Shown here: positions 443 to 41,170 of the stretch, piece after piece
Position numbering within the stretch: the first letter of the stretch is position 1
Layout: each line of letters starts with the position of its first letter
Origin: Candidatus Iainarchaeum sp.
GTDB taxonomy: Archaea > Iainarchaeota > Iainarchaeia > Iainarchaeales > JAXPJC01
Assembly (NCBI GenBank): GCA_016187745.1
Contig: JACPJC010000001.1
Coordinates: 29,571-93,570, forward strand
DNA: 64,000 bases
Reading direction: 5' to 3'
The notes under the pieces: generated by a model
Databases searched by the model: none
What the model was told of the DNA's origin: nothing
Seen by the model: only the letters and a program-made list of their open reading frames with translations
Translations under genes and position numbers: made by a program

Positions 443-1129
443 TCATTTTCTGTTTTTCAGCAGGCTGAGCAGTTCCATCGGTATTGGGATAATTGTCTTG
501 TTTCCCTTCCCATTTGATTCCGTAAGCGCCTCCAATGTCCTGAGGTGCATTGCAGCGCTGTTTTTTGACAGGACATCCGCAGCCTTTTTCAGGTTGCCTG
601 CCGCCGCCAGTTCGCCTTCTGACCTTATTATTGAAGCGCGCTTTTCCCTTTCCGCTTCAGCCTGCTTTGCCATTATGGGCTTCATTTCCCCCGGCAGCTC
701 TATGTCCTGCATTTTTATTGCACTTACCTCAATGCCCCAGGGCTCTATTTCCGAACCCACAACTTCCTTGACCTTCGAGGAGATGTATTCCCTTTTTGCA
801 AGCACGGAATCAAGGTTGCTCGCTCCAACACTGTCGCGCAGCGCGGCCTGCGCATACTGTGCAACCGCATATATGTAATCCTGCACATTCAATACTGCTT
901 TCTTTGCGTCAATAACCTTGAAGTAGACAACGGCATTTATCTTCACAGGAACATTGTCAAGCGTCATTACCTCCTGCTTTGGGATGTCAATGGTTTTCGT
1001 GCGCATGTCCACTTTGACTATTTTCTGCACCGCAGGAAAAAAGAAATGCATCCCCGGGGCAAGCAATCCTGAGAATTTTCCCCCTGAAAATTTCACGCCC
1101 TCCTCAAACTCATATACGAATCTCATCAT
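443..1129 (-). CDS. SPFH/band-7 family protein (stomatin/prohibitin-like)
   Basis: 228 aa. N-terminal hydrophobic segment, SPFH core (VDMRTKTIDIPKQEVMTLDNVPVKINAVVYFKVID...), and a C-terminal Ala/Glu-rich coiled coil. Confidence 0.85.
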   Translation of the reverse strand: MMRFVYEFEEGVKFSGGKFSGLLAPGMHFFFPAVQKIVKVDMRTKTIDIPKQEVMTLDNVPVKINAVVYFKVIDAKKAVLNVQDYIYAVAQYAQAALRDSVGASNLDSVLAKREYISSKVKEVVGSEIEPWGIEVSAIKMQDIELPGEMKPIMAKQAEAEREKRASIIRSEGELAAAGNLKKAADVLSKNSAAMHLRTLEALTESNGKGNKTIIPIPMELLSLLKNRK

Positions 1130-2421
1130 GCAAATTCCTCCTTGTTGTATTCATTGACCAGACCTAGCAATTCCCTTCTTTCTGAATCAATCGCCTTGTG
1201 CCTGATTCCGAGCCTCCGGAATTCCTTTTTCTTCTGGAATTCTCCCTTTGGCGCCAGCACATATTTCTTCCTTTTTGAATCTTCCTCCATCGAGAACATT
1301 AAATGCTTTCTCGGCTTTTCAAACAAATCCAGGCTCATTCCCAGGAGCGTTCTTTCCCTTGCAATCAGCTCATCGCTCTTTCCCAAACCCTTCCTTTCAG
1401 CTTCAAATATTCCCGGCAGCTTCAGCTGCTTTCTCTCCTTCCTCAGCAGCACTTCAGCTTCTTCAATGTTTTTTGGATATTCCTTCCCCCTGTTAAGGAC
1501 CGTCTGGATTATCTCTTTGGGCTGCAGGCTGCTTTTCAGATATTCCTCCGCAAGATGCGTGTTGAATGCCCTGCATGATACTATATCGGTTTTTACCAGC
1601 TGTTTTTTCGGATAGGTGTGGATTGCAATATGGCTTTCCGCGATTATGACAACCCCTGAAACTCCGCTCTCATCCTCCTTTTCCGAGTAGTAGTGGAAGG
1701 CACTAGGCTCGGAAATCTTCTGCATGCCGATGAGGTTTGGCAATTCATCCAGCATGCGCCTCACGAATTCCTCGCTGTTCAGCTTTTCCGAATTGCACTT
1801 GTAGGAATCAAAAATGAACTGCGTTCCGTAGGTTTCGGAAAACTGCCTGAAAGCAAGATAGAACAGCCTGTTTCCAAGCTCATAGCCGATTTGATACAGA
1901 AATATTGCAATGAAGTATATCCAATTGCTAAGATAGATTGAAACAGCAAATCCTGCAACAATCAGCAGAGGCCTTTCCTTAATGAAAAATTCCAGTGTTC
2001 TGTTTATTCTCTTCATTGATTTTCTCAGATTGTCAGAATATTCGTTCAGCGCCTCATCTGCAAATGCAAAGACTATGAAAACCAGGAGCAGCGGAATGCT
2101 TACCTGCGGCAATCCCAGGAAAGCAACCATTCCGACCAATAATGCGACCGCCAGCTGATGGCTCCTGTCAATCCTTTCATGCAGCAGAACCCCGATTACA
2201 ACGGCAATCCCAATGGTTGCAGTTTCAGTTGATAAGGAAACTAAATAGCCTGCGGAAATCCCGAAAACTGCGCCAAATGCATATTTCAGTTTCGGCCCGA
2301 CTTTTGCCTGCTCGTCAATCAAATTGTCCGTAACCTTGGTCAGGATTCCGGTTATGAAACTCAATGAGAAAATCAGAATATTAAGAAAAGACAGGAACAT
2401 TTTTTCACTCCCACATCCCAT
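1126..2421 (-). CDS. speH: Polytopic membrane protein fused to a pyruvoyl-dependent S-adenosylmethionine decarboxylase (SpeH-like) core and a charged C-terminal tail
   Basis: Residues 1-180 contain multiple TM helices. Residues ~190-300 read ...ESGVSGVVIIAESHIAIHTYPKKQLVKTDIVSCRAFN, which matches the archaeal SpeH proenzyme motif (VLVLLAESHISIHTYPE...VDVFTCG). The start overlaps the SPFH start by 4 bp (ATGA). Confidence 0.6.
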   Translation of the reverse strand: MGCGSEKMFLSFLNILIFSLSFITGILTKVTDNLIDEQAKVGPKLKYAFGAVFGISAGYLVSLSTETATIGIAVVIGVLLHERIDRSHQLAVALLVGMVAFLGLPQVSIPLLLVFIVFAFADEALNEYSDNLRKSMKRINRTLEFFIKERPLLIVAGFAVSIYLSNWIYFIAIFLYQIGYELGNRLFYLAFRQFSETYGTQFIFDSYKCNSEKLNSEEFVRRMLDELPNLIGMQKISEPSAFHYYSEKEDESGVSGVVIIAESHIAIHTYPKKQLVKTDIVSCRAFNTHLAEEYLKSSLQPKEIIQTVLNRGKEYPKNIEEAEVLLRKERKQLKLPGIFEAERKGLGKSDELIARERTLLGMSLDLFEKPRKHLMFSMEEDSKRKKYVLAPKGEFQKKKEFRRLGIRHKAIDSERRELLGLVNEYNKEEFA

Positions 2422-4084: not shown

Positions 4085-6496
4085 ATGAAAAGAATCCTGT
4101 TTTTGTTTGCGCTTATGCTTTCATTAGGATTTGCAGGCGCGCAGTTTCCATTTGGGCAGCCGCAAGGCCAGCAGGGGGGCTCTGGATTCCCGCAGCAGGG
4201 ATTCCCCCAACAGCAGGGATTTGGATTTCCCCAGCAGATGCCGCAGCAGCAAGGCGGATTTGGCTTTGGCACAGCGCCACAGCAGGGCTTTGGGTTCGGG
4301 CAGGGCCAGCAGCAGTTTACCCCGCCTACTCCCGGATTTATAGGTATGCCAAGCGGCTTTGAAGCAAGCGCAATTGCACTGCCTCCGCAGTTTCCTTCAG
4401 GCGCTCCAATAAATGAAATGGTTTCAGCACGCATGGGGCAGAAGATATTTGAGAGGTTTGGAACGCAGGAATTAATTTCAATGTGTGCAGATGAGGAAAA
4501 AATGGCTGAAACAATTTATGATTATGTAAAGAGCCTGCAGATGCCTGAGCTGTGCGCGCCGATAAAGGAAGGCCTGCAGAACTGCGAGAAATCGATTGAA
4601 TTCTGCAATGCAATGGGTCAGGGAGTGCCATCTGGAAAGGATGGCAAAGAAATACTGCAGGCATGCCCGCCTGATGAGCAAATTATGAAGCAGATCTGCA
4701 TTGAAAGGAACAGTGAGGACCAGGGCAGGCGCTCTGCTGACTTTGATGAGGATGTTCCACTGCAGTGCGAGCTTGATTGGGAAAGAAATGCAGGAAACTT
4801 CCGGAGAATGTGCGAGCAGAGAAAAATTGAAAAGGAGAGAAAAGAATGCAGGCGCCCGGAGTTTGATGAAAGCTTCAGAAGGGACTGCGGCATGCGCAAT
4901 GGAAGGATTATAGACCGATTTGACCAGTTCGGCTGCGTTTCAGGATGGGAATGCCAGGGCGGAGAATCCTTTGGAAGAGAAACGCCGCAAAGGGCAATAT
5001 GCGGAAATAATTTATGCGAATATCAGGAAAACCCTGACAACTGCCCGGGTGATTGCAGACTTACTGGCGCGAGATGCGGGGACAATTTCTGCGATTCCGG
5101 GAATAATGAGAATTCAGGAAACTGCAGGCAGGATTGCCTGCCGAATTGCGGCGACGGAATATGCGCAGGAATTTCATGCATGTCAACAGGCTGCCCAGAA
5201 AGCGAGAATTCAGCCAACTGCCCGAATGATTGCGAAATAAGGCGCGAGCCCGGCGCAATATGCGGAAATACAATCTGCGAAGCAGGGGAGGATTATGGGA
5301 ATTGCGCCTCTGACTGCCAGGCGCCTGTAATAACAGAGGAGCCATTTGTCGGGCAGCCGGCTTCAACCGAAGAAACAGAGCCTTCAACAACAGAAATCGC
5401 AACTTCAACAGAGGCTGCAACAACCACTACTGAAACAACCGCAACATCAGCAGAAACCGGAACTGCAACAACTGAAACAGCAGCAACAACCACAACAACC
5501 GAAACCACAGCCCCCGCTGCAACAACAGAGCCGGCGCCAGAAGCTACAGCAACAACTTCCACAAAAAAGAGAGTTAATATTTATAAAATTTATATGCAGG
5601 GGTTTGGCTATCCGCAGCCAATGGCTCCGCAGCAGCCGATGCAGCCGCAGGGCTTCGGGTTTGGAATGCAGCAGGGCTTCGGGCAGGCGCAGGGAAATGA
5701 AGCCAATGCGCAGGACTTCTGCGACAAGGATTCATATATCCGGAGTTGCATGGGCAGGATGGAGGAGCAGTTCAACCAGCAGTTCCAGGAAACCAATGTT
5801 GACAGGATATGCGAGCTTGAGGCAAAACTGAACAAGAACCAGATGGCAAGGTTCTGCAAGCAGATGGAGCAGGGAAAAGACGATTGCAAAAAGCACGCAG
5901 AAGACGGATGCAAATTCATAGAAAAACAGCTCGGGAAATGCCAGGAAATGTCATCAGAAGAAGGCATAAAATCAATAATAGAAGAAAAGGCGCACGAGGG
6001 ATGCCTGTTCATCAAGATGCAGCAGTCGCAGTTCAGCGGATTCGGCCTTCCGTTTATGCAGCCCCAGGCGCTTCCGCTTGATTCGCAGATATTCAATACT
6101 GTTTCAGCGCTTGCGCAGAGCGAAAACATGCTTACAGGGGAGTATGCCCCGTGGCTTTCAGGCGAAAGGGGCAGGCTTGTGGATGTTGCGGAGGATGTTG
6201 GAAAGGCAGAGGCGAATGAGAAATCAAAAGATTTGATTTACCAGATAACAAAATTCTTCGGCATGCAGAAGGAAAAGGAACTGAAGGAAGCGAAAGCGCT
6301 GGAGAAACAGACTGAAAAGCTTGAAAAAACAATTGAGAATCTGAAGGCGCTTGCAGAGCAGATGCCTGATGAGAGCACAAAAACAGCGCTTGAAGAGAGC
6401 ATCAAAGGGCTGGAAGAGCGCATGTCCGAGCTGCAGGCAATGGTGCAGTCCAAGGAAGCAGGCGCAGCAGGCATAATGGGAATATTCGGCGGATGA
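4085..6496 (+). CDS. Secreted low-complexity protein: signal peptide, FG/Q-rich repeats, Cys-rich DUF4215-like repeats, Thr/Ala-rich stalk, second FG/Q-rich region, C-terminal coiled coil
   Basis: - Signal peptide MKRILFLFALMLSLGFAGAQ.
- About 90 aa of GFPQQ/QGFGFG repeats.
- Four repeats of CG(N/D)xxCExxExxxNCxxDC (nt ~4997-5345).
- TEETEPSTTEIATSTEAATTTTETTATS... linker (nt ~5340-5580).
- Second MQGFGYPQP...QGFGFGMQQGFGQ region.
- Two 8-Cys helical domains.
- Heptad-rich C-terminus ending GAAGIMGIFGG. Confidence 0.8.
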   Translation: MKRILFLFALMLSLGFAGAQFPFGQPQGQQGGSGFPQQGFPQQQGFGFPQQMPQQQGGFGFGTAPQQGFGFGQGQQQFTPPTPGFIGMPSGFEASAIALPPQFPSGAPINEMVSARMGQKIFERFGTQELISMCADEEKMAETIYDYVKSLQMPELCAPIKEGLQNCEKSIEFCNAMGQGVPSGKDGKEILQACPPDEQIMKQICIERNSEDQGRRSADFDEDVPLQCELDWERNAGNFRRMCEQRKIEKERKECRRPEFDESFRRDCGMRNGRIIDRFDQFGCVSGWECQGGESFGRETPQRAICGNNLCEYQENPDNCPGDCRLTGARCGDNFCDSGNNENSGNCRQDCLPNCGDGICAGISCMSTGCPESENSANCPNDCEIRREPGAICGNTICEAGEDYGNCASDCQAPVITEEPFVGQPASTEETEPSTTEIATSTEAATTTTETTATSAETGTATTETAATTTTTETTAPAATTEPAPEATATTSTKKRVNIYKIYMQGFGYPQPMAPQQPMQPQGFGFGMQQGFGQAQGNEANAQDFCDKDSYIRSCMGRMEEQFNQQFQETNVDRICELEAKLNKNQMARFCKQMEQGKDDCKKHAEDGCKFIEKQLGKCQEMSSEEGIKSIIEEKAHEGCLFIKMQQSQFSGFGLPFMQPQALPLDSQIFNTVSALAQSENMLTGEYAPWLSGERGRLVDVAEDVGKAEANEKSKDLIYQITKFFGMQKEKELKEAKALEKQTEKLEKTIENLKALAEQMPDESTKTALEESIKGLEERMSELQAMVQSKEAGAAGIMGIFGG

Positions 6497-19876: not shown

Positions 19877-21604
19877 ATGCAATCCATGGCGGGATTGCCC
19901 TGGGGCAAGTTTGAAAAAAGGCTGAAGAAAACAGGCTATTGGAAGATTGCCATTGCCGCTGTTGTTGCAGTACTGGCGGTTGCGGGCTTTCTGATTCTGG
20001 GCGGTTTTTTCGGGGGGCAGCCCCCCGCTTCGGAAGGGATTTCCGCAGAGGTTTACAAAGCGGTGAATGAGCTGAAGCACCCCGATGTCATTGCGCAAAC
20101 AAATTTAACGCAGGAGGATGTGTTGGCTGCCTTTGGCGAGGAGGACGAATTCTACACAGTGCTTGAGCTTGCAGGGTATTTGGGCTATCAGGACCTTCTG
20201 GGCACTGTCAGGACAGATTACAAAGACGGGAACGCCATTACAGTTGGCATGCTTGCAAATTCAGGCGGCAATGTTATTTTCATTGAAAGGCTTGAAGCGC
20301 CGGGATACAGCAAAACACTCCTGATAAGCTATACGGATGAGGAGCATTACACAATATTTGATGCAGAAGGGGGAATTAAGAGGAATGGCGCAGATTTTAC
20401 TAAACTTGGAAAAGAGGATATCCTAGGGATTTCCCTTGAAGGCGGAATGAATCCAAGCAAGGGCATTCTTGCGCCCGATATAATCCGCTTTGGTTTTTGT
20501 GATGAGAAAGGCGGGGGCTTCTGGGACTGCATATGGGAAAATAAATGGTCCCTTGGCCTTTCCGTTGTAGGCGCGATTGCCGCATGCATTGGCTCAGGAG
20601 TCGGCGGCGCATTTACTGCTGTAACTGCCGGACTATTTACTCCTGCGGAAATTGCCCTGGTTCTTGGCTGCATCGGGGCAGGCGGTTCGGCTTTAGCAAT
20701 TATAGGTGACTGCTCGCTGCGGTCGGCAGACAATGCCCCAAGTGTTGATGCATTCAGCCAGATAACCGGCGATTGCTACAAATGCATCAGCAACAAAAGG
20801 ATGAAGCTCAAGGAGGTTACAATTACCGGAAGCGTTGAGGACGACAGGCAGCCCAATCCCACATGGAGTGAGCCAAACGCGTCTGGAAGTGTTGCTGTGT
20901 GCGACACAGGGGATTACATTGAGAGGTTTACTGCAGTTGACTGCGGGGGCAATAGCGTGAGCGAGTATGAGGAAATAACGCTGCCAGAGCCTGAACTTGC
21001 CTCAGAGCAATGCGTTGGCGGCGATGGCTGCTGCCCATCGGGCTGCACTGAGGACAATGACAACGACTGCATTGGGGAGTGCGGAAACAATGCTGCTGAA
21101 GGCTCTGAAGAGTGCGACGGCCCTGACTTGGGGGGCAAAGACTGCAAAAGCATTGGATATGCCCCGGGCGCCCTAACCTGCACTGCGGATTGTAAGCTTG
21201 ATGCTTCAGGCTGCGGCAATTGCTGGACTGATGCAGACTGCGATGATGCGAATGCATGCACCGATGATGCGTGCGCTGATTTTACCTGCAAAAACACCCA
21301 GAAGGCTGACTGCTGCACAAAAGACGCTGACTGCGATGATGGCGATTTATGCACAACAGATGTGTGCAATGCAGGCAACCGCTGTGAAAATACTACAACA
21401 ACAACCTCCCCGGGCTACGGCTCCCCGCAGTCTGGCAGCGACTGCGGCGCTTGCGCAGGCCTTGGCCTTGAATGCAGGGAAGATTTCTATGCGCCTGGCT
21501 ACTATGGCTGCTGCCCGCAGAACTACTGCCTTGTTGACAGCTTCTGCCAGCCCGAATGCACACTTGTAGACGGAAAAATATGCAAGAGCGGCTCATGGAC
21601 TTAA
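19877..21604 (+). CDS. Membrane-anchored extracellular protein with C-terminal Cys-rich (DUF4215/Myxococcus-type) repeats
   Basis: 575 aa.
- N-terminal TM anchor YWKIAIAAVVAVLAVAGFLIL.
- Gly-rich hydrophobic segment in mid-protein.
- C-terminal ~200 aa with CGNNAAEGSEECDGPDLGGKDC and DADCDDANACTDDACADFTC / DADCDDGDLCTTDVCNAGNRCEN repeats. Confidence 0.75.
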   Translation: MQSMAGLPWGKFEKRLKKTGYWKIAIAAVVAVLAVAGFLILGGFFGGQPPASEGISAEVYKAVNELKHPDVIAQTNLTQEDVLAAFGEEDEFYTVLELAGYLGYQDLLGTVRTDYKDGNAITVGMLANSGGNVIFIERLEAPGYSKTLLISYTDEEHYTIFDAEGGIKRNGADFTKLGKEDILGISLEGGMNPSKGILAPDIIRFGFCDEKGGGFWDCIWENKWSLGLSVVGAIAACIGSGVGGAFTAVTAGLFTPAEIALVLGCIGAGGSALAIIGDCSLRSADNAPSVDAFSQITGDCYKCISNKRMKLKEVTITGSVEDDRQPNPTWSEPNASGSVAVCDTGDYIERFTAVDCGGNSVSEYEEITLPEPELASEQCVGGDGCCPSGCTEDNDNDCIGECGNNAAEGSEECDGPDLGGKDCKSIGYAPGALTCTADCKLDASGCGNCWTDADCDDANACTDDACADFTCKNTQKADCCTKDADCDDGDLCTTDVCNAGNRCENTTTTTSPGYGSPQSGSDCGACAGLGLECREDFYAPGYYGCCPQNYCLVDSFCQPECTLVDGKICKSGSWT

Positions 21605-28397: not shown

Positions 28398-28913
28398 TTG
28401 GGGAGACAAATGATTGTTATTGTAATGGGCGTTACCGGATCAGGCAAAACAACCATAGGCAAAATGCTTGCTGAAGAGCTCGGATGGGGCTTCTATGAAG
28501 GGGATGAATTCCACCCTGCAGGCAATGTTGACAGAATGAAGAAAGGAATCCCGTTAAACGATAACGACAGAACGCCCTGGCTGAATACAATTAGGAAATT
28601 AATTATGAAATGTATTAAAGAAAAAGAAAATGCAATAATAACCTGCTCGGCTTTAAAGGAGTCTTACCGTAATTTATTAATGACGGATGATAAAGAGATA
28701 AAATTAGTATATCTTAAGGGGGATTTCAATGTGATTCAGAAAAGATTAAAGAATAAAAACCGTAAAAACCACTTTATGAATCCAAATCTGTTGAAAAGCC
28801 AATTTGATGCCCTTGAAGAGCCCAAAAATGCATTAGAGGTAGACATTTCCAAAAAGCCGAAGATTATTGCCGAATCCATTAAATCAGAATTAACTTTGCT
28901 GCTTTGCGCCTGA
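28398..28913 (+). CDS. gntK: Gluconokinase-like P-loop kinase
   Basis: 171 aa. GVTGSGKTTIG...GWGFYEGDEFHPAGNVDRMKKGIPLNDNDRTPWL matches the GntK signature (GDxxHP..N..KM..G.PL.D.DR.PWL). Confidence 0.75.
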   Translation: MGRQMIVIVMGVTGSGKTTIGKMLAEELGWGFYEGDEFHPAGNVDRMKKGIPLNDNDRTPWLNTIRKLIMKCIKEKENAIITCSALKESYRNLLMTDDKEIKLVYLKGDFNVIQKRLKNKNRKNHFMNPNLLKSQFDALEEPKNALEVDISKKPKIIAESIKSELTLLLCA

Positions 28914-30419
28914 GGCAAGCGCCTGCGCTTCCATGTCTCCGGAAATGAAGTGCTTGACGCCTTTTCTGAATATGTAGAGCAGGGCAATCACCGCAGCAAT
29001 AATTATGCCAAGGACAATGTCGCCCGCGCCTACGGCAAGCCCTGCAAAGCTGAGCGCGCCCGCAGGAACATTTATTGTTTTTGAAGCGAATTTCTTCCCT
29101 GAGGCAATCACATCAAAGCTCACATCCCCCGAAGCAACCTTGGGCTTTGTGACTTTCATTTCCACTACAATTTCCTCCCCGGGAGCAATGTTGAAATGGT
29201 TTGGGGAAAATTCCGCTGAGAACTCAGGCGGCATTGCTGTTATGTCAAAATGCACATCAGTAAGTGTTTCTGCAGTTGTGTTTTTTATCGGCTGCCTTAT
29301 TGCAACTGTTTCAATGCCTGAAACCTCAGGCTCTGCAGGCGCAGCGATTGGCGCAGCTGCTTCCCTTACTTCAACAGTGAATTCCACTACCCTGCTGATT
29401 TCCCCATTGAAATAAATTCTCGCGGGGTAAATTCCGGGAAGCGCGCCCTGCGCAGCCCTAATAGTGAATGGAAGGCTTGAGCTCTCCCCTGCGCCAATAT
29501 CTATTGCATTTGATTTAAGCTGTATCAGCTCCGAGCTTGAAGTCAGGGCAAAATGAAGCGCGTCATATCCTGTGTTTGTTATAAGCACTGAGGAATTGCT
29601 GTCAGTTCCTGAATTCAGCGCATAAACCGCATATGGCACGTCTATTTTTGCATCATAGAGCGGCTTTGCAAGGATTGCAATTTCGCCAAGGTTGAACTGC
29701 AGGTTTGTCGCAAGGTCAAGCAGCGCAATTCCAATTCCATAATTTCCCGGCTGCAGGCCTGAATTGCTTTTTGCATTTATATATATGCTGTACGTGCAGT
29801 TCATGCACACATTGTATGCAATCAGGGGATTTGCGCTCAGATCAATTCCTTCCGGGACATTGAAAAACACCACATTGAAGTCCGAGGCGCTTCCTGAATT
29901 CCTGAAGCTCACAATTGTGCTTTCATTGTCATTCTTTGCCATTATCAGCGCAGGATTGCTGAATTTCACTGCCGAAATGATTGGGGAAATATTCGAATTT
30001 GCGCTTGTTGTGTAAAGGTAGTCTGAGGATTCTGAAACTTCCACAACAATTACCCCGCTTGCGCTCCTTTCCCTCCCGAATTCATCAGCCGCCTTTATTT
30101 TCATCTCAAGGTTGTAGATTCCCGGAAACGCGTCTTCGGCAACCTCAATGCCATAATCAAATGTGTAGGAATCCTGCATCTTTATGGGGGAAAAGTCCCC
30201 AACGAGCTGCACCTTTGGATAATCCCCGGCTTCAGTATAAACAGTTGTAAGCTGATTTGCGCCTTCCACTCCATAAGTTGCGCTAATCGGATAAGTGCTG
30301 CCCTGCTGCATCTCAACCCTGGCGGGGCTTACTTCCATGCTCAGGTAGAGGGCGTTTGCCGTGCCAGCATAGATTATGAGCGCAATGCCGACAAATGCGA
30401 AAAACAATTTGAAGGTCAT
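28890..30419 (-). CDS. Cell-surface protein with a signal peptide and a C-terminal TM anchor
   Basis: 509 aa. Signal peptide MTFKLFFAFVGIALIIYAGTANA, many N-x-S/T sequons, and a C-terminal LGIIIAAVIALLYIFRKGVKH anchor. Confidence 0.65.
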   Translation of the reverse strand: MTFKLFFAFVGIALIIYAGTANALYLSMEVSPARVEMQQGSTYPISATYGVEGANQLTTVYTEAGDYPKVQLVGDFSPIKMQDSYTFDYGIEVAEDAFPGIYNLEMKIKAADEFGRERSASGVIVVEVSESSDYLYTTSANSNISPIISAVKFSNPALIMAKNDNESTIVSFRNSGSASDFNVVFFNVPEGIDLSANPLIAYNVCMNCTYSIYINAKSNSGLQPGNYGIGIALLDLATNLQFNLGEIAILAKPLYDAKIDVPYAVYALNSGTDSNSSVLITNTGYDALHFALTSSSELIQLKSNAIDIGAGESSSLPFTIRAAQGALPGIYPARIYFNGEISRVVEFTVEVREAAAPIAAPAEPEVSGIETVAIRQPIKNTTAETLTDVHFDITAMPPEFSAEFSPNHFNIAPGEEIVVEMKVTKPKVASGDVSFDVIASGKKFASKTINVPAGALSFAGLAVGAGDIVLGIIIAAVIALLYIFRKGVKHFISGDMEAQALASGAKQQS

Positions 30420-30504
30420 TTAATTCACTCCATAACGTTAATACATATATACTATGGTTTCCGGCATTTATAAGGCTTTCCTATCTGAAAAAAATCAGGC
30501 AAAT

Positions 30505-33500
30505 TCAGCGCTTTTGCGCGTGGAAAAAAGGCCTTGAAGGCATCCTTTGCTTTGAGAGCCTGAGGGCAAGGGCAAACGCAATAATGATAACAAGAGCCAG
30601 CAGGCCCAATCCCAGTGAAGGGCCCAAAGCAAACAATCCCACAAGCGCGCCCTCAGGGGATTCCTTTCCCGCGGCGGATTCCCTTACATAGAGAACCATG
30701 GGCTTTTCCGAAACATACTTGTCGCTTGCGGCCCTGAGCGTCAATCCCCAATCCCCAATTCCCGCATTTGATGCGAGTTTTATTGTTCCAATTGCGGTAA
30801 TTGTTGAATTCGCATCAACGTTCCCTGTGTCTATCGAATTAAAGTAAATGTTGCCCGGCAATCCCTCTATTGAAATGCTGATGTTTGTTATTTTCTCGTT
30901 TGTCGGGTTTGTTATTATGAATGTGAGCTGCTGCTCCGCGCCCTGGTTCAAATCAATTACTTGCGGATAGCTCTCAATGCGCAATACATTCTCCTGCAGT
31001 ATCCTCTCCGAAACAACTTCAAATGCAATGGCAATCTCCTTTGTTGCGTATGCGCCTGATGCTTTGAGCGTTATGCTTTTTGCCCCGGCATTTGCGTCCG
31101 CTGAAACATCAATCTTTATGCTAACCTGCTTGGAGTTTCCCGCATTCAGGTATATGTTTGAGTCTGAAAGCGCAGCGCTTATTCCGTCATAGCCCTCTGA
31201 AACCGAGAGCGTGTAATCCTCGCCGTAATCCCCTATGTTCTTAACAAGCGCGTAAAGCTCATCGGCAGAATTGCGCTTTATCTGCAGGCCGGGGTTCAGT
31301 GCGCTTAATTCCGTTGCGTGCGCATTTGCGACATTTATGCACACTATCCTTTTCGCATAGGATTCCGCATCATAGGCAAACAATTCAATGTTATGGGTTC
31401 CTGCAGAACTCCCAAGCAGAGTTGTTATTTTGACTGAATTTGAGTATGTTGAGCCGCCCTCAATTGAGAATGCGGAAGTTTTCACTTCGGAAATAAGGTC
31501 CCCGTCCGCGGTCGCATTTATTGAAAGTTTTTCATCGGAGATGTTCCCTACGCTGAACGGAATTTCCATTGAGGAGTTCTTGTTCATGTCAATGCATCCG
31601 GCATTCACATCAAGCGTGAATTCCGCAGCCTGCGTTTCAGCGCAGTCAATCACATTGAAATATATGTCCTCCCTAACGGAGTTGTTTCCCAGAAGCGCGG
31701 TTGCCGCAATCTTGTAATTGTCAGCGATTTTTGTTGTTGAATTTGTCCTTATTGCAAGTTCCGCATACTGCTGGCTGCCTGTTGGCAGCAATAAATTGTC
31801 AGGCGAAAAATACGGAAGGAACATTTCGGATTCCGCCTTGAGCACAATCGCATTCTGGTCATAGTAGTTGTTTTTCAGGAGCACGTTTATTTTTCCTGTA
31901 GAGCCCCTGCATATGCTTGCTGTGCTTGCGCTCAATTCAACTGCGGGAGTCTGCTCGATTCTAACCCCGATAATGCTTGAAACGCTTTCTGTTGCCGAGG
32001 CGGAATAGGTTGCGGTAAATGTCGCGCTATAGCCCCCATAAACTGCATCGCTCGTTGCGCTTATTCCCAAAGAAACAGTGCTCTGCTCATTTCCGTTAAG
32101 GCACAGGGATGATGTATTAAGGGCTGTTTTCACATACGGGCTGCTTGAGCTTGCGCTAAAGGTCATGCATATTTTGGAACTGGAAGTGTTTTTTACCGTG
32201 AAGCCCGCGCTTTCATTATCCCCCTTGTCAAGCTCATAATTTATGAATATCGCATCCAGGTCTATTTTTGTGAGGCTTTCCTTTATATTAATGTAATAAT
32301 TATAGGGTTCGCGGTTTGCGCCGTAATCAAGGTTCAATGTTATGCCGTATTTTCCGACTGCGGCAGAATCCCCTGCGCTTACAGCCAATGATACCGCTGT
32401 TGAGGAATTCGCATCAATGCAGGGGTTGTTGGGGGAAGCGCTTGCCGAAATTGCGGAATCCGTGCTCTGCGCAGTTATCAGCGGGCATATCTGCGACGCC
32501 GAGTTGTTCTTTATTGTCACGCTTGCGCCTGACTGCTCCCCAATCTCAACATCAAGTTCTGAAGGTGAGAACTGCACTGAAAAATTTCCGATTACATTCA
32601 CATTGAAGCTTGCATTTGCATAAAAGCCCCCGGAGTCAGTAACCCTCACAGTTACGGTATTCGTTCCCAGGGAATTTGCATCCGGCGCAGCGCAGCTCAC
32701 ATTCTGGTTCGAGGTTATTGAGCAGTTCAGCAGATTTGAATCGCTCTGCGAAACAATTGTGAATGCCAATTGCGCGTCTGCGCTTTCCGCATCGCTAGCA
32801 TATGCCCATAAATCAATCAAATTCGCCTGCGCGCCTGAATTGACTAAAACATTCCTGTCGGGCAGCGCAGAAATCTGCGGGGCGGTATTCGCAAGGACAG
32901 TGAAGCTCCAGCCCGCGCTTGAGTAATTGCCAAGGGAATCAGAAGCAGTAATTGCCGCATCAACCTGCTGATTGTAGGCAAATTGCGCGCTTGGGGTAAA
33001 TGTAACAGCGCCATTGTTATAGCTCAACTGGGAATTTGCAAGAGTGTAATCGATCCCTTCAACAGCCATTGTGATGGAATTTATATTGATGCCTGAAGCA
33101 TCGCTCAATTGCGCGCTTATGGGCTGCATCAGGTTAGTGCTTATTGACCCGTTTGCGGGATTAAAGTTTGCTATTGCCGGCCCTGTGTTGTCAATGGCAA
33201 AATTGCCGTCGCTGTAGCCGGTTATTGTTTCATAGCCGATTATTCCATCGCCCATATCAACAGTGCCGGTAATGCTCACATCAAGGAAGTAATTGCCGTC
33301 TGCGAAGCCGCCTGTTGATGAATAGGAAGAGCATGCAAACGAATTTCCTGAACTGTCGCAGTTGGATGGGTCATACATGTCAAAATCTGAAAACACTACA
33401 TAGCTGTAGCCGTTGCTGATGTTTGCATCATTGTCAAGGTAAATGCCCGCCCCGTTCAAATTAGGCCCTATGCCTTCGGATGTGAAGTATGCGGAAAGGC

Positions 33501-34419
33501 TGCTGCTGAAATATATCCCCGAATAGGGATAATCAACCTGCACGCTCTGCGCATTTGCTGAAGCGAGCATGAAAATTGCAAGGAACAAAATTGCGGCATA
33601 GTGGATTTTCTTCCCCTGCGCCCTGTGCACAAACCTCGCAATGAAGGAAATCAGCAGAAGCGCCGCAACTATTGCAAGCAGTATGTCAAGCGCAAGCTCC
33701 GGGCTTATTTTCGGGAAAAGCGCAGCAAATCCCGCAATAGCGCCCTTGGCATCGTATTTCAGCGCAATCCTCTCGGAATGCCCGAAGCCAAGCGCGGAGA
33801 ATTTCAGCATTGCATTCCCGTCAAATGAGCTAGCAGGCCTGAGAAGTATTGTCTGGGTTCTTGTTTCAAGCGCAGGAATCTTCAATTTGAATGTTTTCGG
33901 GCTCACATTCCAGTCCGAGGGAATGCCTTCAATCCCTGAAAATTCCAATTCCATATCCTGGACTGTTTTGTTGTATGCGGTAACATCAATCCAGAATGTG
34001 TTTTCGTCCCTGCCAACATTATAATTCGAATTCAGTGTAACCTTTGCCGGGAAATCATCAAGCGCATAGAATTTAAGGGTTATTTCCCTTGTTTCAATAT
34101 TGCTGCCAAGGGAAACCTGCAGGTTCGCCTTCTGCTGTATTCCCACAAATTCAGTTTTCGGGTAAAGCAGCATTTTTATTCCGGCGGATTTGTTCGCGTC
34201 AATTGAAGCCGGAAGCGCGCCTTCAATCTCATAATCAATCGGCGCAAAGAGCTTCACTCCCAGCGTTTGCGCAGTTGCATAATTGTTTGTTACTGTAAGT
34301 GTAAGCTCTTCAGGCATCTGGTTGAACTGCACTACGTTGTTAACTGAAATCGCAGCGCTTGCGCTCAGCGCCAGCAATAGCGCAAAAAGCAATACTGCAA
34401 TAATCCTTACCCCGAACAT
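30505..34419 (-). CDS. Large cell-surface protein: apparently two secreted modules in one frame, each with a signal peptide and a C-terminal TM anchor
   Basis: 1304-aa ORF.
- Signal peptide MFGVRIIAVLLFALLLALSASAA.
- TM anchor plus basic stop-transfer at aa ~245-270 (ILLAIVAALLLISFIARFVHRAQGKK).
- Immediately after it, a second signal-peptide-like segment IHYAAILFLAIFMLASANAQS.
- Final C-terminal anchor LLALVIIIAFALALRLSKQR.
- Abundant N-glycosylation sequons. Confidence 0.7.
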   Translation of the reverse strand: MFGVRIIAVLLFALLLALSASAAISVNNVVQFNQMPEELTLTVTNNYATAQTLGVKLFAPIDYEIEGALPASIDANKSAGIKMLLYPKTEFVGIQQKANLQVSLGSNIETREITLKFYALDDFPAKVTLNSNYNVGRDENTFWIDVTAYNKTVQDMELEFSGIEGIPSDWNVSPKTFKLKIPALETRTQTILLRPASSFDGNAMLKFSALGFGHSERIALKYDAKGAIAGFAALFPKISPELALDILLAIVAALLLISFIARFVHRAQGKKIHYAAILFLAIFMLASANAQSVQVDYPYSGIYFSSSLSAYFTSEGIGPNLNGAGIYLDNDANISNGYSYVVFSDFDMYDPSNCDSSGNSFACSSYSSTGGFADGNYFLDVSITGTVDMGDGIIGYETITGYSDGNFAIDNTGPAIANFNPANGSISTNLMQPISAQLSDASGININSITMAVEGIDYTLANSQLSYNNGAVTFTPSAQFAYNQQVDAAITASDSLGNYSSAGWSFTVLANTAPQISALPDRNVLVNSGAQANLIDLWAYASDAESADAQLAFTIVSQSDSNLLNCSITSNQNVSCAAPDANSLGTNTVTVRVTDSGGFYANASFNVNVIGNFSVQFSPSELDVEIGEQSGASVTIKNNSASQICPLITAQSTDSAISASASPNNPCIDANSSTAVSLAVSAGDSAAVGKYGITLNLDYGANREPYNYYINIKESLTKIDLDAIFINYELDKGDNESAGFTVKNTSSSKICMTFSASSSSPYVKTALNTSSLCLNGNEQSTVSLGISATSDAVYGGYSATFTATYSASATESVSSIIGVRIEQTPAVELSASTASICRGSTGKINVLLKNNYYDQNAIVLKAESEMFLPYFSPDNLLLPTGSQQYAELAIRTNSTTKIADNYKIAATALLGNNSVREDIYFNVIDCAETQAAEFTLDVNAGCIDMNKNSSMEIPFSVGNISDEKLSINATADGDLISEVKTSAFSIEGGSTYSNSVKITTLLGSSAGTHNIELFAYDAESYAKRIVCINVANAHATELSALNPGLQIKRNSADELYALVKNIGDYGEDYTLSVSEGYDGISAALSDSNIYLNAGNSKQVSIKIDVSADANAGAKSITLKASGAYATKEIAIAFEVVSERILQENVLRIESYPQVIDLNQGAEQQLTFIITNPTNEKITNISISIEGLPGNIYFNSIDTGNVDANSTITAIGTIKLASNAGIGDWGLTLRAASDKYVSEKPMVLYVRESAAGKESPEGALVGLFALGPSLGLGLLALVIIIAFALALRLSKQRMPSRPFFHAQKR

Positions 34420-34510
34420 AAGCTCACAATTAACTGATTAACATTAATTAAGTATAATAATTAGCAGTCAAAGTTGTATATAAACCCTGCTGTTTTGGCA
34501 AGCCAGGGGG

Positions 34511-35104
34511 CTAAGGGCGCTTCCCCGCCACAATCGCGCCTAGGAGGTCGGTTTTTGTTATGATTCCCGCGATTCCGCCGTGCTTTGCGACCAGGACAGC
34601 AGGATAATGCTCGAGCATTGCGGCTATCATCTCCTGCGGCGAATTTTCCTGTATCATGGGCGGGGAATCCTCCATTATCTGCCTTACCGGAAGCTCGGCA
34701 ATGCTCTTTTGCCTGCCGGAGTAATCCTGCCCTGTTTCAATTATCCTTTTTTCCGAAATCATCCCCACCACTTTTCCGGAATCAACAACAGGCAGCTGGC
34801 TTATGCTGTGCCTGCGCATTATGATTATTACATTCTTTATTCTCTCATTTGCCTTCACATCTATTACGTGCTTATGCATTATGTCCTTCGCTGTTTTCAC
34901 ATCCGTGCGCTTTGCGGAATCAAGCGCATTCAGAATCTTCTTCGCATTCCCATAGCCGGGAACGAGATTTCCGGATTCTATTTTTGCAATGAGCGACTGG
35001 GAAACGCCCGCAAGCTTCGCCAGTCCGGTTTGCGTCAGCCCCAGATGCATGCGCCTTAATTTTATCTCATCCAGCTCGGGAAGCATGTTCTGATTATGTA
35101 CCAA
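34511..35104 (-). CDS. HTH (XRE-type) + tandem CBS domain transcriptional regulator
   Basis: 197 aa. HTH LTQTGLAKLAGVSQSLIAKIESG, followed by two CBS motifs (MHKHVIDV..., IMEDSPPMIQ...). Divergent from metK. Confidence 0.75.
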   Translation of the reverse strand: MVHNQNMLPELDEIKLRRMHLGLTQTGLAKLAGVSQSLIAKIESGNLVPGYGNAKKILNALDSAKRTDVKTAKDIMHKHVIDVKANERIKNVIIIMRRHSISQLPVVDSGKVVGMISEKRIIETGQDYSGRQKSIAELPVRQIMEDSPPMIQENSPQEMIAAMLEHYPAVLVAKHGGIAGIITKTDLLGAIVAGKRP

Positions 35105-39869: not shown

Positions 39870-41170
39870 TGTGAATTACCATAACCTATATAATACTTGA
39901 GGTTATGGCTTCTTGCTTCATAGAACTACTTGCTGTTTCGTTCTCCACAAAGCCCCATCCCAGAGCCAATATGTTTTTAGCGGAATTTACATCTCTCTCT
40001 ATTTCCAATCCACAATCACAGGAGTATGTTCTCTGCGATAATGGAATGTCCTGCATAGCCCCGCAACTGCTGCACATCCTGCTTGTATTTTTTGGATTTA
40101 CTTCTATTACTTCTGCACCAGCACTTTCAGCCTTGTGCTTCAGCATAGAAGCAAATTTTGCCCAAGAACAATCAAGAAAATTGCGCATATTCCAAAACCT
40201 ATTCTTCTTTTTGCTGATCATTTCTTTTATATTCAAACCTTCAATGCAAATCAATTTGTTTTTGCTTACTATTTTTGTTGAGAGTTTATGCATAAAATCA
40301 TTTCTCTGATTTTCAACTTTCTCATATAGTTTGCCTAACTTTTGCTTTGCCCTTTTCCTGTTGTAGCTTCCTTTCTTTTTTCTTGATAAATCCTGATGTA
40401 CTTTTTTTATTTTCTTCAAACTTTTTTTCAGAAACAAAGGAGATTTTATTTTGTTGCCGTTGCTGTCTGCAATGAAATTCATAATTCCAAAGTCAAGCCC
40501 TATTTGCCCTTCTCCCTTTTGTTTCTTGTATATTTCATCTGTTATCAAAATAGCATACCATTTCCCCGCTGTCTTCTTGATTGTTATTTGTTTGATTGCT
40601 CCACTTGTTATTCTATGGCATCTGATATTTATTTTGCCTATCTTTGAAAGTTTGAGTTTTCCGTATCTTTTCCCTGTTTGTTCCAATTCATAACCGCTTT
40701 GGTTGTAGTTTATTGTCTTGAACCATTCCCTTCCCTTGAAGCGCAACTTTCCTACTTTTATACCCTTCCTTTTCAATTGTACCAATGCCCTTAAATTTCC
40801 AAACAGCTTATGGCATTCATATTGCAGAGTTTTTGAATATACATCATCCAATCCAGAAAATTCCTTTTTAAATTCAACAAGGCTGTGCTGTATTTCTTTC
40901 TTGTTTATTTTCTCACTTTTATTCATTTTTTCCAGCAGTTTGTTGTAAGTAAATCTGCACAAATCAAATGTTCTGAACAACGCCTGCTCCTGCTGCTTTG
41001 AAGGGTATAATCTGAATTTGTATGCCATCATAGCTATTTCCCCTTTCCGCGGCTTTCAGTATATTTTGCCTTTAAGTGGCTTTTAATGGTTTTGGAACCA
41101 TTTCGCCACTGAATTACGATATATACCAATTCATCTATAGCCTAACAAAGTTCAGGTTATAGACTCCTTG
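39870..41170 (-). mobile_element. IS200/IS605-family insertion sequence, tnpB-only (IS1341-like); no tnpA
   Basis: TnpB ORF, plus subterminal hairpins at both ends. Right-end hairpin ccataacct-N12-aggttatgg at 39879..39908 overlaps the tnpB stop. Left-end imperfect hairpin ctatagcc-N12-ggttatag at 41135..41162. Confidence 0.75.
39886..41031 (-). CDS. tnpB: IS200/IS605 transposon-associated RNA-guided endonuclease TnpB (OrfB)
   Basis: 381 aa. OrfB N-terminal helix MMAYKFRLYPSKQQEQAL, RuvC-like blocks, and a C-terminal zinc finger CSSCGAMQDIPLSQRTYSCDCGLEIERDVNSAKNI. Confidence 0.9.
   Translation of the reverse strand: MMAYKFRLYPSKQQEQALFRTFDLCRFTYNKLLEKMNKSEKINKKEIQHSLVEFKKEFSGLDDVYSKTLQYECHKLFGNLRALVQLKRKGIKVGKLRFKGREWFKTINYNQSGYELEQTGKRYGKLKLSKIGKINIRCHRITSGAIKQITIKKTAGKWYAILITDEIYKKQKGEGQIGLDFGIMNFIADSNGNKIKSPLFLKKSLKKIKKVHQDLSRKKKGSYNRKRAKQKLGKLYEKVENQRNDFMHKLSTKIVSKNKLICIEGLNIKEMISKKKNRFWNMRNFLDCSWAKFASMLKHKAESAGAEVIEVNPKNTSRMCSSCGAMQDIPLSQRTYSCDCGLEIERDVNSAKNILALGWGFVENETASSSMKQEAITSSII

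Follow-up and report, generated by a model that had tools for sequence, protein, structure and literature searches.

We examined 64,000 nucleotides of Candidatus Iainarchaeum sp. DNA (GenBank assembly GCA_016187745.1, contig JACPJC010000001.1, positions 29,571 to 93,570; hereafter the window, with coordinates counted from its first letter), and within it a minus-strand gene for a predicted cell-surface protein of 1304 amino acids (aa) that very probably originated as two neighbouring genes. The open reading frame (ORF), taken from a six-frame ORF list, spans 30505..34419. Hydropathy analysis places exactly four hydrophobic segments in it, comprising two predicted signal peptides (SP1 and SP2) and two predicted transmembrane (TM) helices (TM1 and TM3). 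The polypeptide runs from SP1 through a two-domain immunoglobulin (Ig)-like ectodomain, TM1, a 9-residue basic loop, SP2, a 966-residue ectodomain and TM3 to a basic tail. Both the ORF list and the junction itself (...AGG TTT GTG CAC AGG GCG CAG GGG AAG AAA ATC CAC TAT...) confirm that no stop codon separates the first module (aa 1-271) from the second, as had been noticed in the first-pass annotation, a model's reading of the sequence alone. That annotation had also rightly recognised a complete first module, ending it at aa 270 instead of K271, a trivial offset.

Signal peptides were judged by rule, that is by their n/h/c organisation and the residues at positions -3 and -1, together with hydropathy. 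SP1 (aa 1-22; 34354..34419; MFGVRIIAVLLFALLLALSASA followed by AISV) has a hydropathy peak of 2.76, ends in ALSASA with small residues at -3 and -1, and aligns with the signal peptides of the stand-alone homologues described below. The module-1 ectodomain (aa 23-240; 33700..34353) is predicted by homology and an AlphaFold2 model to form two Ig-like beta-sandwich domains. It leads into TM1 (aa 241-262; 33634..33699; ...LLAIVAALLLISFIAR; hydropathy 2.87), the putative stop-transfer anchor of module 1, and a predicted cytoplasmic tail or loop, FVHRAQGKK (aa 263-271; 33607..33633), which was delimited by codon-register comparison. SP2, an internal signal peptide by hydropathy and its A-x-A ending, occupies aa 272-290 (33550..33606; IHYAAILFLAIFMLASANA followed by QS). 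The module-2 ectodomain (aa 291-1256; 30652..33549) is a chain of Ig-like domains in which Pfam and NCBIfam models place a Big_5 domain at 410-507, a tandem-95/cadherin-like domain at ~520-610 and NEW3/CARDB-like repeats up to ~1250. TM3 (aa 1257-1286; hydropathy 2.77), a basic tail (RLSKQRMPSRPFFHAQKR) and the stop codon complete the gene (30505..30651). Module 1 contains no cysteine, and all 12 cysteines of the protein lie within the module-2 ectodomain. Most of them form close pairs (354/363, 566/576, 645/667 and 751/773), which suggests intradomain disulfides.

The fused arrangement is shared by a clade. Four orthologue clusters from ENA, NCBI and Logan (1303-1308 aa, 79-85% identity, 100% coverage) all read through the junction, and these with the window gene are the five orthologues compared throughout. 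One of the four clusters holds eight further full-length members (1297-1303 aa), and one member of it is named by NCBI 'Ig-like domain-containing protein [Candidatus Diapherotrites archaeon]' / Candidatus Iainarchaeum sp. The identical 1304-aa protein was found on six independently assembled Logan contigs from different sequencing runs, and a JGI metagenome contig reads ...ARFVHRAQGKKIHYAAI at the junction, again without a stop. The junction is nearly unchanged in all orthologues of the fused gene. Among the five fused genes, synonymous divergence (dS) is 0.59-0.89 and omega is 0.13-0.17 (Nei-Gojobori). The ratio of nonsynonymous to synonymous differences per site (pN/pS) is 0.26 in the module-1 ectodomain, 0.17 in TM1 and its tail, 0.23 in SP2 (compared with 0.42 in SP1) and 0.20 in the module-2 ectodomain. 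Every part of the fused gene, the junction as well as each module, evolves under purifying selection. The fusion has therefore outlasted substantial divergence, and its two halves are functional.

The split pair of other Iainarchaeia and the lost stop codon

A profile of aa 1-410, built from the five fused orthologues, was searched with HMMER against all 1.84 billion cluster representatives at E ≤ 1e-3. It returned 125 matches which, with the exception of the fused gene's own cluster, were all proteins of 164-345 aa. Most of these stand-alone proteins matched profile positions ~1-270 end to end, with a best E value of 1.6e-49, and the module-1 ectodomain is homologous over its whole length to stand-alone proteins of 260-345 aa. 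A subclass of ~165-225 aa matched the profile in two stretches and represents a one-domain version with the same anchor. Profile positions 290-410 had no match outside the fused clade in this search. The stand-alone proteins stop right after the TM helix, with the ending ...LLIAFIARFVKRV[RK], as exemplified by ...LLIAFIARFVKRVR and ...LLIAFIARFIKRVK, each directly before a stop codon.

We then compared 28 related loci, namely two stand-alone homologues for which genomic context was available and 26 loci from GTDB species representatives. The locus scan used a 14-sequence subset alignment, the 57-sequence alignment being too divergent. The named records among the 26 GTDB loci are nearly all Candidatus Iainarchaeum or Diapherotrites metagenome-assembled genomes; one is the complete genome of archaeon GW2011_AR10. 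At all 28 loci module 1 has its own stop codon and is followed by an ORF of 350-1220 aa, whose product begins with a signal peptide of 19-26 residues ending in A-x-A (T-x-A in two loci). The gap between the two genes is -4 nucleotides (nt), an ATGA overlap, in 10 of the 28, lies between 0 and +18 nt in most others and reaches +85 nt in one; the two ORFs share a reading frame in 10 of the 28. All but one of the 26 partner ORFs compared match module 2 by BLASTP (E values of 3e-12 to 7e-60, and 1e-25 or better for 24), with a conserved core corresponding to about aa 700-1290 of the 1304-aa protein. The partners match module 2 in their domain types (Ig-like/NEW3/FixG_C) and end, as it does, in a C-terminal TM anchor and basic tail. 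Fused and split loci also share a neighbourhood in which MetK is followed by an HTH-CBS regulator and then by the pair (tblastn).

Given the shared homologues, architecture and MetK/HTH-CBS synteny, the split pair is the ancestral state and the fused gene the derived one. By these comparisons, modules 1 and 2 are a conserved, ancestrally split two-gene surface pair of the Iainarchaeia (Diapherotrites, DPANN). Whether the 270-aa module is a separate gene elsewhere had been raised in the first-pass annotation; it is separate in all relatives outside the fused clade, both among the HMMER matches and at the 28 loci. The split genes are probably translationally coupled, since they abut or overlap and the partner's Shine-Dalgarno sequence lies inside the module-1 tail codons.

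The composition of the pair varies. At the same locus, module 1 takes a one-domain form of ~180-190 aa (loci L026-L036) or a two-domain form of ~260-345 aa (L009-L025), and module 2 of the fused clade has, compared with the split partners, an extra N-terminal region of ~440 aa (Big_5, tandem-95-like). Judged from these forms, domain gain and loss at the locus is rapid. The three loci nearest to the window by MetK identity (L028, L031 and L032; 80-83%) pair a one-domain module 1 with a partner of ~610-640 aa.

The position of the lost stop can be read from the codon register. With codons numbered from the conserved I[AS]FIAR motif, the tail at the unfused in-frame loci L035, L026, L029 and L028 comprises eight codons, codon 15 is the stop and codon 16 the ATG of the partner; in one such junction, ARFVKRMEGR and a stop are followed directly by the partner's signal peptide, MKRALIAALFMLMLAVNAFA, with its predicted cleavage site before L. 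In the fused clade, codon 15 is AAA or AAG (K271) and codon 16 is ATC, ATT or GTC (I/V272), and these lead into a 19-residue signal peptide ending in ANA before Q. In the window, the K271 codon AAA (33607-33609, minus strand) stands where relatives have the stop, and the I272 codon ATC (33604-33606, minus strand) where they have the partner's ATG. The tail codons of the relatives also encode the partner's Shine-Dalgarno sequence (CTG GAG GCG, ATG GAG GGC or ATG GGA GGC). The same site reads G CAG GG(G/A) in all five fused genes, codons 267-269 in the window being GCG CAG GGG, and the GGAGG core is gone.

We are therefore nearly certain that the 1304-aa gene is the product of stop-loss fusion of an in-frame, zero-spacer gene pair. 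A single TAA or TAG to AAA or AAG substitution in such a pair would have created the one ORF, after which the now useless start codon (ATG to ATC, ATT or GTC) and Shine-Dalgarno sequence (GGAGG to GCAGG) would have decayed. Of the two explanations first offered for the continuous frame, a polyprotein-like fusion or two genes whose intervening stop was lost, the latter is correct as history, as module 1 stands alone elsewhere and the relatives' stop and ATG align with K271 and I272; the former, with cleavage by signal peptidase, is the most likely account of how the product functions. The locus provides a clean, datable example of one stop-codon substitution fusing two secreted or membrane proteins without disturbing their topology, since a signal peptide that follows a stop-transfer helix functions just as well. 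For annotation, such genes should not be 'corrected' into two or flagged as frameshifted.

The internal signal peptide and the fate of the fused product

SP2 has the parts expected of a signal peptide: an n-region, RFVHRAQGKK; an h-region of 15 residues (IHYAAILFLAIFMLA), compared with 20 or more for TM1 and TM3; and a c-region, SANA, before Q. The basic loop preceding it contains four lysine or arginine residues and one histidine in the pattern R-x-x-H-R-x-x-x-K-K. The sequence across the predicted cleavage site, between A290 and Q291, is ...FMLASANAQSVQVDYPYSGIYF..., also readable as MLASANAQSVQ, and predicted mature module 2 would begin at Q291 (QSVQVDYPYSGIYF...). Position -1 is alanine in all five orthologues and -3 is alanine or valine, while -2 (N/G) and -4 (S/Y) vary. 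SP2 is collinear with the N-terminal A-x-A signal peptides of the unfused partners and the same in kind. An N-out/C-in TM1 followed by the basic loop predicts, by the positive-inside rule, that SP2 is oriented N-in/C-out.

A plausible route for the product can be laid out from this topology. SP1 would bring the nascent chain to the Sec translocon and then be cleaved, the module-1 ectodomain would be exported, and TM1 would stop transfer, leaving the basic loop in the cytoplasm. SP2 would re-insert N-in/C-out, forming the other limb of a hairpin, and restart translocation, and its A-x-A site at the outer face would be cut after A290 by archaeal type I signal peptidase. Cleavage would give back the ancestral mature module 2, anchored by TM3 only, while module 1 would retain an extra C-terminal helix, with the two proteins produced in a fixed 1:1 ratio. 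The loss of the stop would have been tolerated because cleavage would regenerate the ancestral mature module 2, and the fusion, with topology unchanged, would have been close to neutral and hence fixable.

We lean towards the view that type I signal peptidase does cut between A290 and Q291, based on the basic loop, the length of the SP2 h-region, the -3/-1 pattern, the collinearity with unfused signal peptides and the precedents discussed below, namely the vertebrate astrotactins, Bradyrhizobium FbcH and viral glycoprotein precursors. Several points weigh against it. Cleavage is a prediction that rests on sequence rules. The A-x-A motif is conserved among five orthologues that are fairly closely related, and the surrounding region is itself well conserved, so the pattern carries small statistical weight. 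Conservation of the h-region does not discriminate either, since a cut and an uncut product alike require a hydrophobic hairpin. An AlphaFold2 model spanning aa 1-410, made with the five close orthologues and including the hairpin, is poor (predicted local distance difference test score, pLDDT, 49). Finally, we know of no documented archaeal cellular polyprotein that is processed by signal peptidase.

The alternative that fares best is that the product stays whole as a three-TM protein, with TM1 and SP2 forming a permanent hairpin between a small N-terminal ectodomain and a large one that arches from one membrane anchor to the other. TM1, the 9-residue basic loop and a 19-residue hydrophobic segment make a good topology on their own, and no other part of the gene is under stronger purifying selection than the junction (pN/pS 0.15-0.23), as would be expected of structural TM helices. 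SP2, however, retains an h-region of signal-peptide length and an A-x-A motif at the position used in unfused orthologues, and orthologue substitutions avoid -1 and -3. Moreover, signal peptidase cuts such sites in characterised systems of the same topology, and a tethered N-terminus would alter the geometry of module 2, whose N-terminus is free in all relatives. We consider an uncleaved hairpin possible but rather unlikely. Fixed fusion followed by cleavage of SP2 is the best overall explanation, and we hold it with modest confidence. The more demanding proposal, that the 1304-aa product is an obligate archaeal cellular polyprotein cut between A290 and Q291 to leave a two-helix membrane adaptor in 1:1 ratio with module 2, is in our estimation evenly balanced.

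A second alternative is dual expression, in which internal starts at GTG264, or at ATG263 or ATG267 in some orthologues, would also yield module 2. The first-pass annotation had pointed to a GTG at 33630, preceded by GAGGT, as an independent start, and both elements are present: the GTG (33628-33630) is in frame as codon 264, and GAGGT (33633-33637) lies 2 nt upstream, spanning the last base of the tail (in window coordinates) and the last TM1 codons. The GTG264 codon is invariant among the orthologues, codon 263 is ATG in two and GTG in one, and codon 267 is ATG in three. However, these ATG codons are themselves unconserved, and GAGGT occurs in one of the five genes, the site reading AGG-TTT in the window and AGA-ATG, AGA-GTG or AGA-TTT in the other four. 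The 2-nt spacing also departs from the ~5-6 nt of the Shine-Dalgarno sites observed in the lineage, GGAGTGA-N5-ATG of the 509-aa gene described below and GGTGA-N6-ATG at locus L010, and the ancestral Shine-Dalgarno sequence and ATG have been lost in all five orthologues. The proportion of synonymous differences (pS) at the junction, 0.43-0.46 in the five orthologues, hardly departs from the average of 0.49 for the whole gene, and therefore no embedded initiation signal is being preserved there. The same normal synonymous divergence led us to reject a concealed RNA or regulatory element at this place. An independent start behind GAGGT is thus unsupported. Because the internal-start signals are unconserved and the ancestral ones decayed, module 2 is, as read from these codons, a product of translation from the first ATG, and dual expression is improbable.

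The weakest alternative, a sequencing or assembly error that removed the stop or a recent disabling pseudogenisation, would fit the stop found at the junction position in every more distant relative examined but is already refuted by the identical ORF in six independent assemblies, the diverged orthologue clusters and JGI contig, and an omega of 0.13-0.17 in both halves over a dS of 0.6-0.9; the stop in orthologues that would have betrayed an error is replaced by read-through fixed in all five.

A probable envelope role and neighbouring genes

The AlphaFold2 model of module 1, built on the 57-sequence alignment, is confident (pLDDT 91.3), with strands at 23-117 and 125-222 and a helix at 240-269. 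Foldseek searches of the PDB with it returned generic tandem beta-sandwich matches only (ciliary ASH/MSP-like domains, CEP192, transglutaminase C-terminal domains and Fab). TM1 is the most conserved segment of the module-1 family, with the consensus LLIAFIAR or, at greater length, LD..L..IAA.LLIAFIARLV. Residues L248, L255, F259 and R262 are invariant or at least 90% conserved in the 57 sequences, which outside the window protein's clade are ~20-33% identical to it. This pattern suggests that the module-1 TM helix has a specific intramembrane partner or acts as a recognition signal. A hydrophobic motif before the TM helix is common to modules 1 and 2 and the 509-aa protein encoded downstream (GAIAGFAALFP, GALVGLFALGP and GALSFAGLAVG).

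A Sec signal peptide, a beta-sandwich chain and a C-terminal membrane anchor are present, as in archaeal S-layer glycoproteins, and an S-layer, sheath or host-attachment role is plausible. Pfam and NCBIfam searches gave generic Ig-like domains only, and neither they nor searches of PDB sequences linked the modules by homology to any S-layer protein, adhesin or sorting system that has been characterised, which counts against this reading; neither module 2 nor the module-1 profile had a significant match among PDB sequences. No known CTERM sorting model in NCBIfam matched module 1 or the 509-aa protein at E ≤ 1, and none of that type matched the 1304-aa protein. The ectodomains had also been called sequon-rich, which proves to be an effect of composition: N-X-S/T sites are not enriched in the 1304-aa protein (22, compared with 17.9 +/- 3.6 in shuffled sequences, 17% of which reach 22) or in the 509-aa protein (5, compared with 3.9 +/- 1.8). 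We found no literature on an Iainarchaeum S-layer or envelope. The pair is nonetheless probably a core cell-envelope component, a role that fits its fixed locus across Iainarchaeia, the conserved module-1 TM helix and the conserved promoters and leaders of the 1304-aa and 509-aa genes.

The promoter of the fused gene includes a TATA box (TTTATATA; 34477..34484, minus strand) 57 nt upstream of the ATG that is invariant in all five orthologues. The promoter-proximal region and 5' leader downstream of it (34420..34476, minus strand) read ...TTTGACTGCTAATTATTATACTTAATTAATGTTAATCAGTTAATT, with repeated TTAAT motifs. The sequence that starts with the TATA box is nearly invariant in the five orthologues, although synonymous pS is ~0.49, until the last ~8 nt of the leader, which vary. 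No Shine-Dalgarno sequence is conserved before the first ATG. The gene immediately upstream (34511-35104) encodes the HTH-CBS regulator that is syntenic with the pair across Iainarchaeia, and the nearly invariant promoter and leader (34420-34484, minus strand) could be an operator for it. A run of seven T residues after the stop of the fused gene (30488..30494, minus strand), matched by a T-run in all five orthologues, is a likely archaeal terminator.

Downstream lies the gene for the 509-aa surface protein (28890..30419, minus strand), which has a predicted signal peptide (aa 1-23, ending in ANA before L), an Ig-like/NEW3 ectodomain, a TM helix (460-486) and a 23-aa tail. Its promoter and leader (30425..30473, minus strand) form an invariant block in the five orthologues that contains a TATA box (TTATAAAT; 30466-30473) and the Shine-Dalgarno sequence GGAGTGA (30425-30431), 5 nt before the ATG. 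With the T-run after the 1304-aa gene, and a TATA box and Shine-Dalgarno sequence of its own before the 509-aa gene, each of the two appears to form its own transcription unit. Orthologues of the 509-aa protein were found in the fused clade only, and are syntenic in all orthologue loci. The three modules had been described as alike, and in architecture they are; similarity in sequence does not extend to the 509-aa protein, whose best BLASTP match to the 1304-aa protein has an E value of 0.17. We rejected it as a paralogue of either module on this result; two partner proteins gave weak matches (E ~1e-4).

The 3' end of the 509-aa gene overlaps by 24 base pairs (28890-28913), as previously noted, with a convergent gene for a 171-aa kinase (28398..28913, plus strand), a gluconokinase of the GntK/IdnK type (TIGR01313, 172.6 bits against a cutoff of 113.75). 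The overlap is not conserved: the kinase is absent from this position at locus L005, and at L006 the kinase is separated from the 507-aa orthologue by a gene for 6-phosphogluconate dehydrogenase.

Elsewhere in the window, a 381-aa TnpB/IS605 OrfB-type protein (39886-41031, minus strand) matches OrfB_IS605 (2e-25), Cas12f1-like TNB (8e-22) and HTH_OrfB_IS605, and by these matches is a mobile-element or RNA-guided nuclease relative. An 803-aa predicted exported protein (4085-6496, plus strand) has a signal peptide, MKRILFLFALMLSLGFAGA, and a Q/G-rich region, and a 575-aa predicted membrane protein (19877-21604, plus strand) has an N-terminal TM helix. Neither has a meaningful Pfam match, and both genes coincide with local bumps in GC (guanine plus cytosine) content and positive GC skew. 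A 431-aa ORF (1126-2421, minus strand) combines several predicted TM segments with an AdoMet_dc domain (4e-25, aa 203-312), and may be either an over-extended call or an unusual membrane-linked form of S-adenosylmethionine decarboxylase.

Comparison with known systems

The fused protein is a natural candidate substrate for archaeal signal peptidase at an internal site. If cleavage is borne out, it would be, to our knowledge, the first documented archaeal cellular polyprotein to be processed by this enzyme, and together with the split loci it would form a before-and-after pair in which translationally coupled genes were replaced by a covalent fusion with mature products unchanged. Polyproteins split at internal signal peptides include the Bradyrhizobium japonicum FbcH cytochrome b/c1 precursor and the glycoprotein precursors of flaviviruses, hepatitis C virus and bunyaviruses. 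In these, as predicted for the fused gene, a single ORF specifies two membrane or exported proteins on either side of a hydrophobic segment that serves as an internal signal peptide with a -3/-1 site, and their ratio is fixed at 1:1. The fused gene has the sequence features of this class, namely a continuous ORF of two otherwise separate proteins and a predicted n/h/c segment with small residues at -3 and -1. It differs in being a cellular archaeal surface gene whose origin is traceable to a single stop-codon substitution.

The closest parallel in topology is provided by the astrotactins ASTN1 and ASTN2, vertebrate membrane glycoproteins that are cut by endoplasmic reticulum signal peptidase just after their second transmembrane helix, TMH2 (doi 10.1101/493858). 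Like the fused protein, they consist of a signal peptide, a small extracytoplasmic domain, TMH1, a short cytoplasmic loop, TMH2 and a large extracytoplasmic domain. Unlike it, they are eukaryotic, unrelated in sequence and demonstrably cleaved, where cleavage of the archaeal protein is predicted. The astrotactin fragments are also disulfide-linked, a link made impossible here by the lack of cysteine in module 1, and their large domain does not carry the additional C-terminal TM anchor that the fused protein has.

Within the Iainarchaeia, the split pairs (L009-L036, including archaeon GW2011_AR10, CP010424.1, as L015) are orthologous to the fused gene and share its locus, signal peptide and TM layout, and LLIAFIAR helix. 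They have a stop codon, an ATG and a Shine-Dalgarno sequence in the tail, all three of which the fused clade has lost, and a shorter module 2. The fused gene shows the module-1 homology and the module-2 neighbour of the pair family and departs from it only in not being two separate ORFs. The pair defines a previously undescribed two-gene surface module of the Iainarchaeia and a candidate component of the cell envelope of this uncultivated group.

Among archaeal surface layers, the Sulfolobales have two-component S-layers made of SlaA and SlaB, and the csg gene of Haloferax encodes an Ig-domain S-layer glycoprotein with a C-terminal anchor. The Iainarchaeia pair resembles these in setting a small anchored beta-sandwich protein beside a large surface protein, and in its Sec signal peptides, Ig-like chains and C-terminal anchoring. 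In contrast to them, it has no detectable sequence homology to either and its large protein has a TM anchor of its own; relative to slaAB the gene order is reversed, and PGF-CTERM or other known sorting signals and sequon enrichment are absent. Stop-loss gene fusions are commonplace, and processing at internal signal peptides is well known in viruses, in eukaryotes and in at least one bacterium. What is new here is an archaeal example in which the split ancestral state is preserved in sister lineages.

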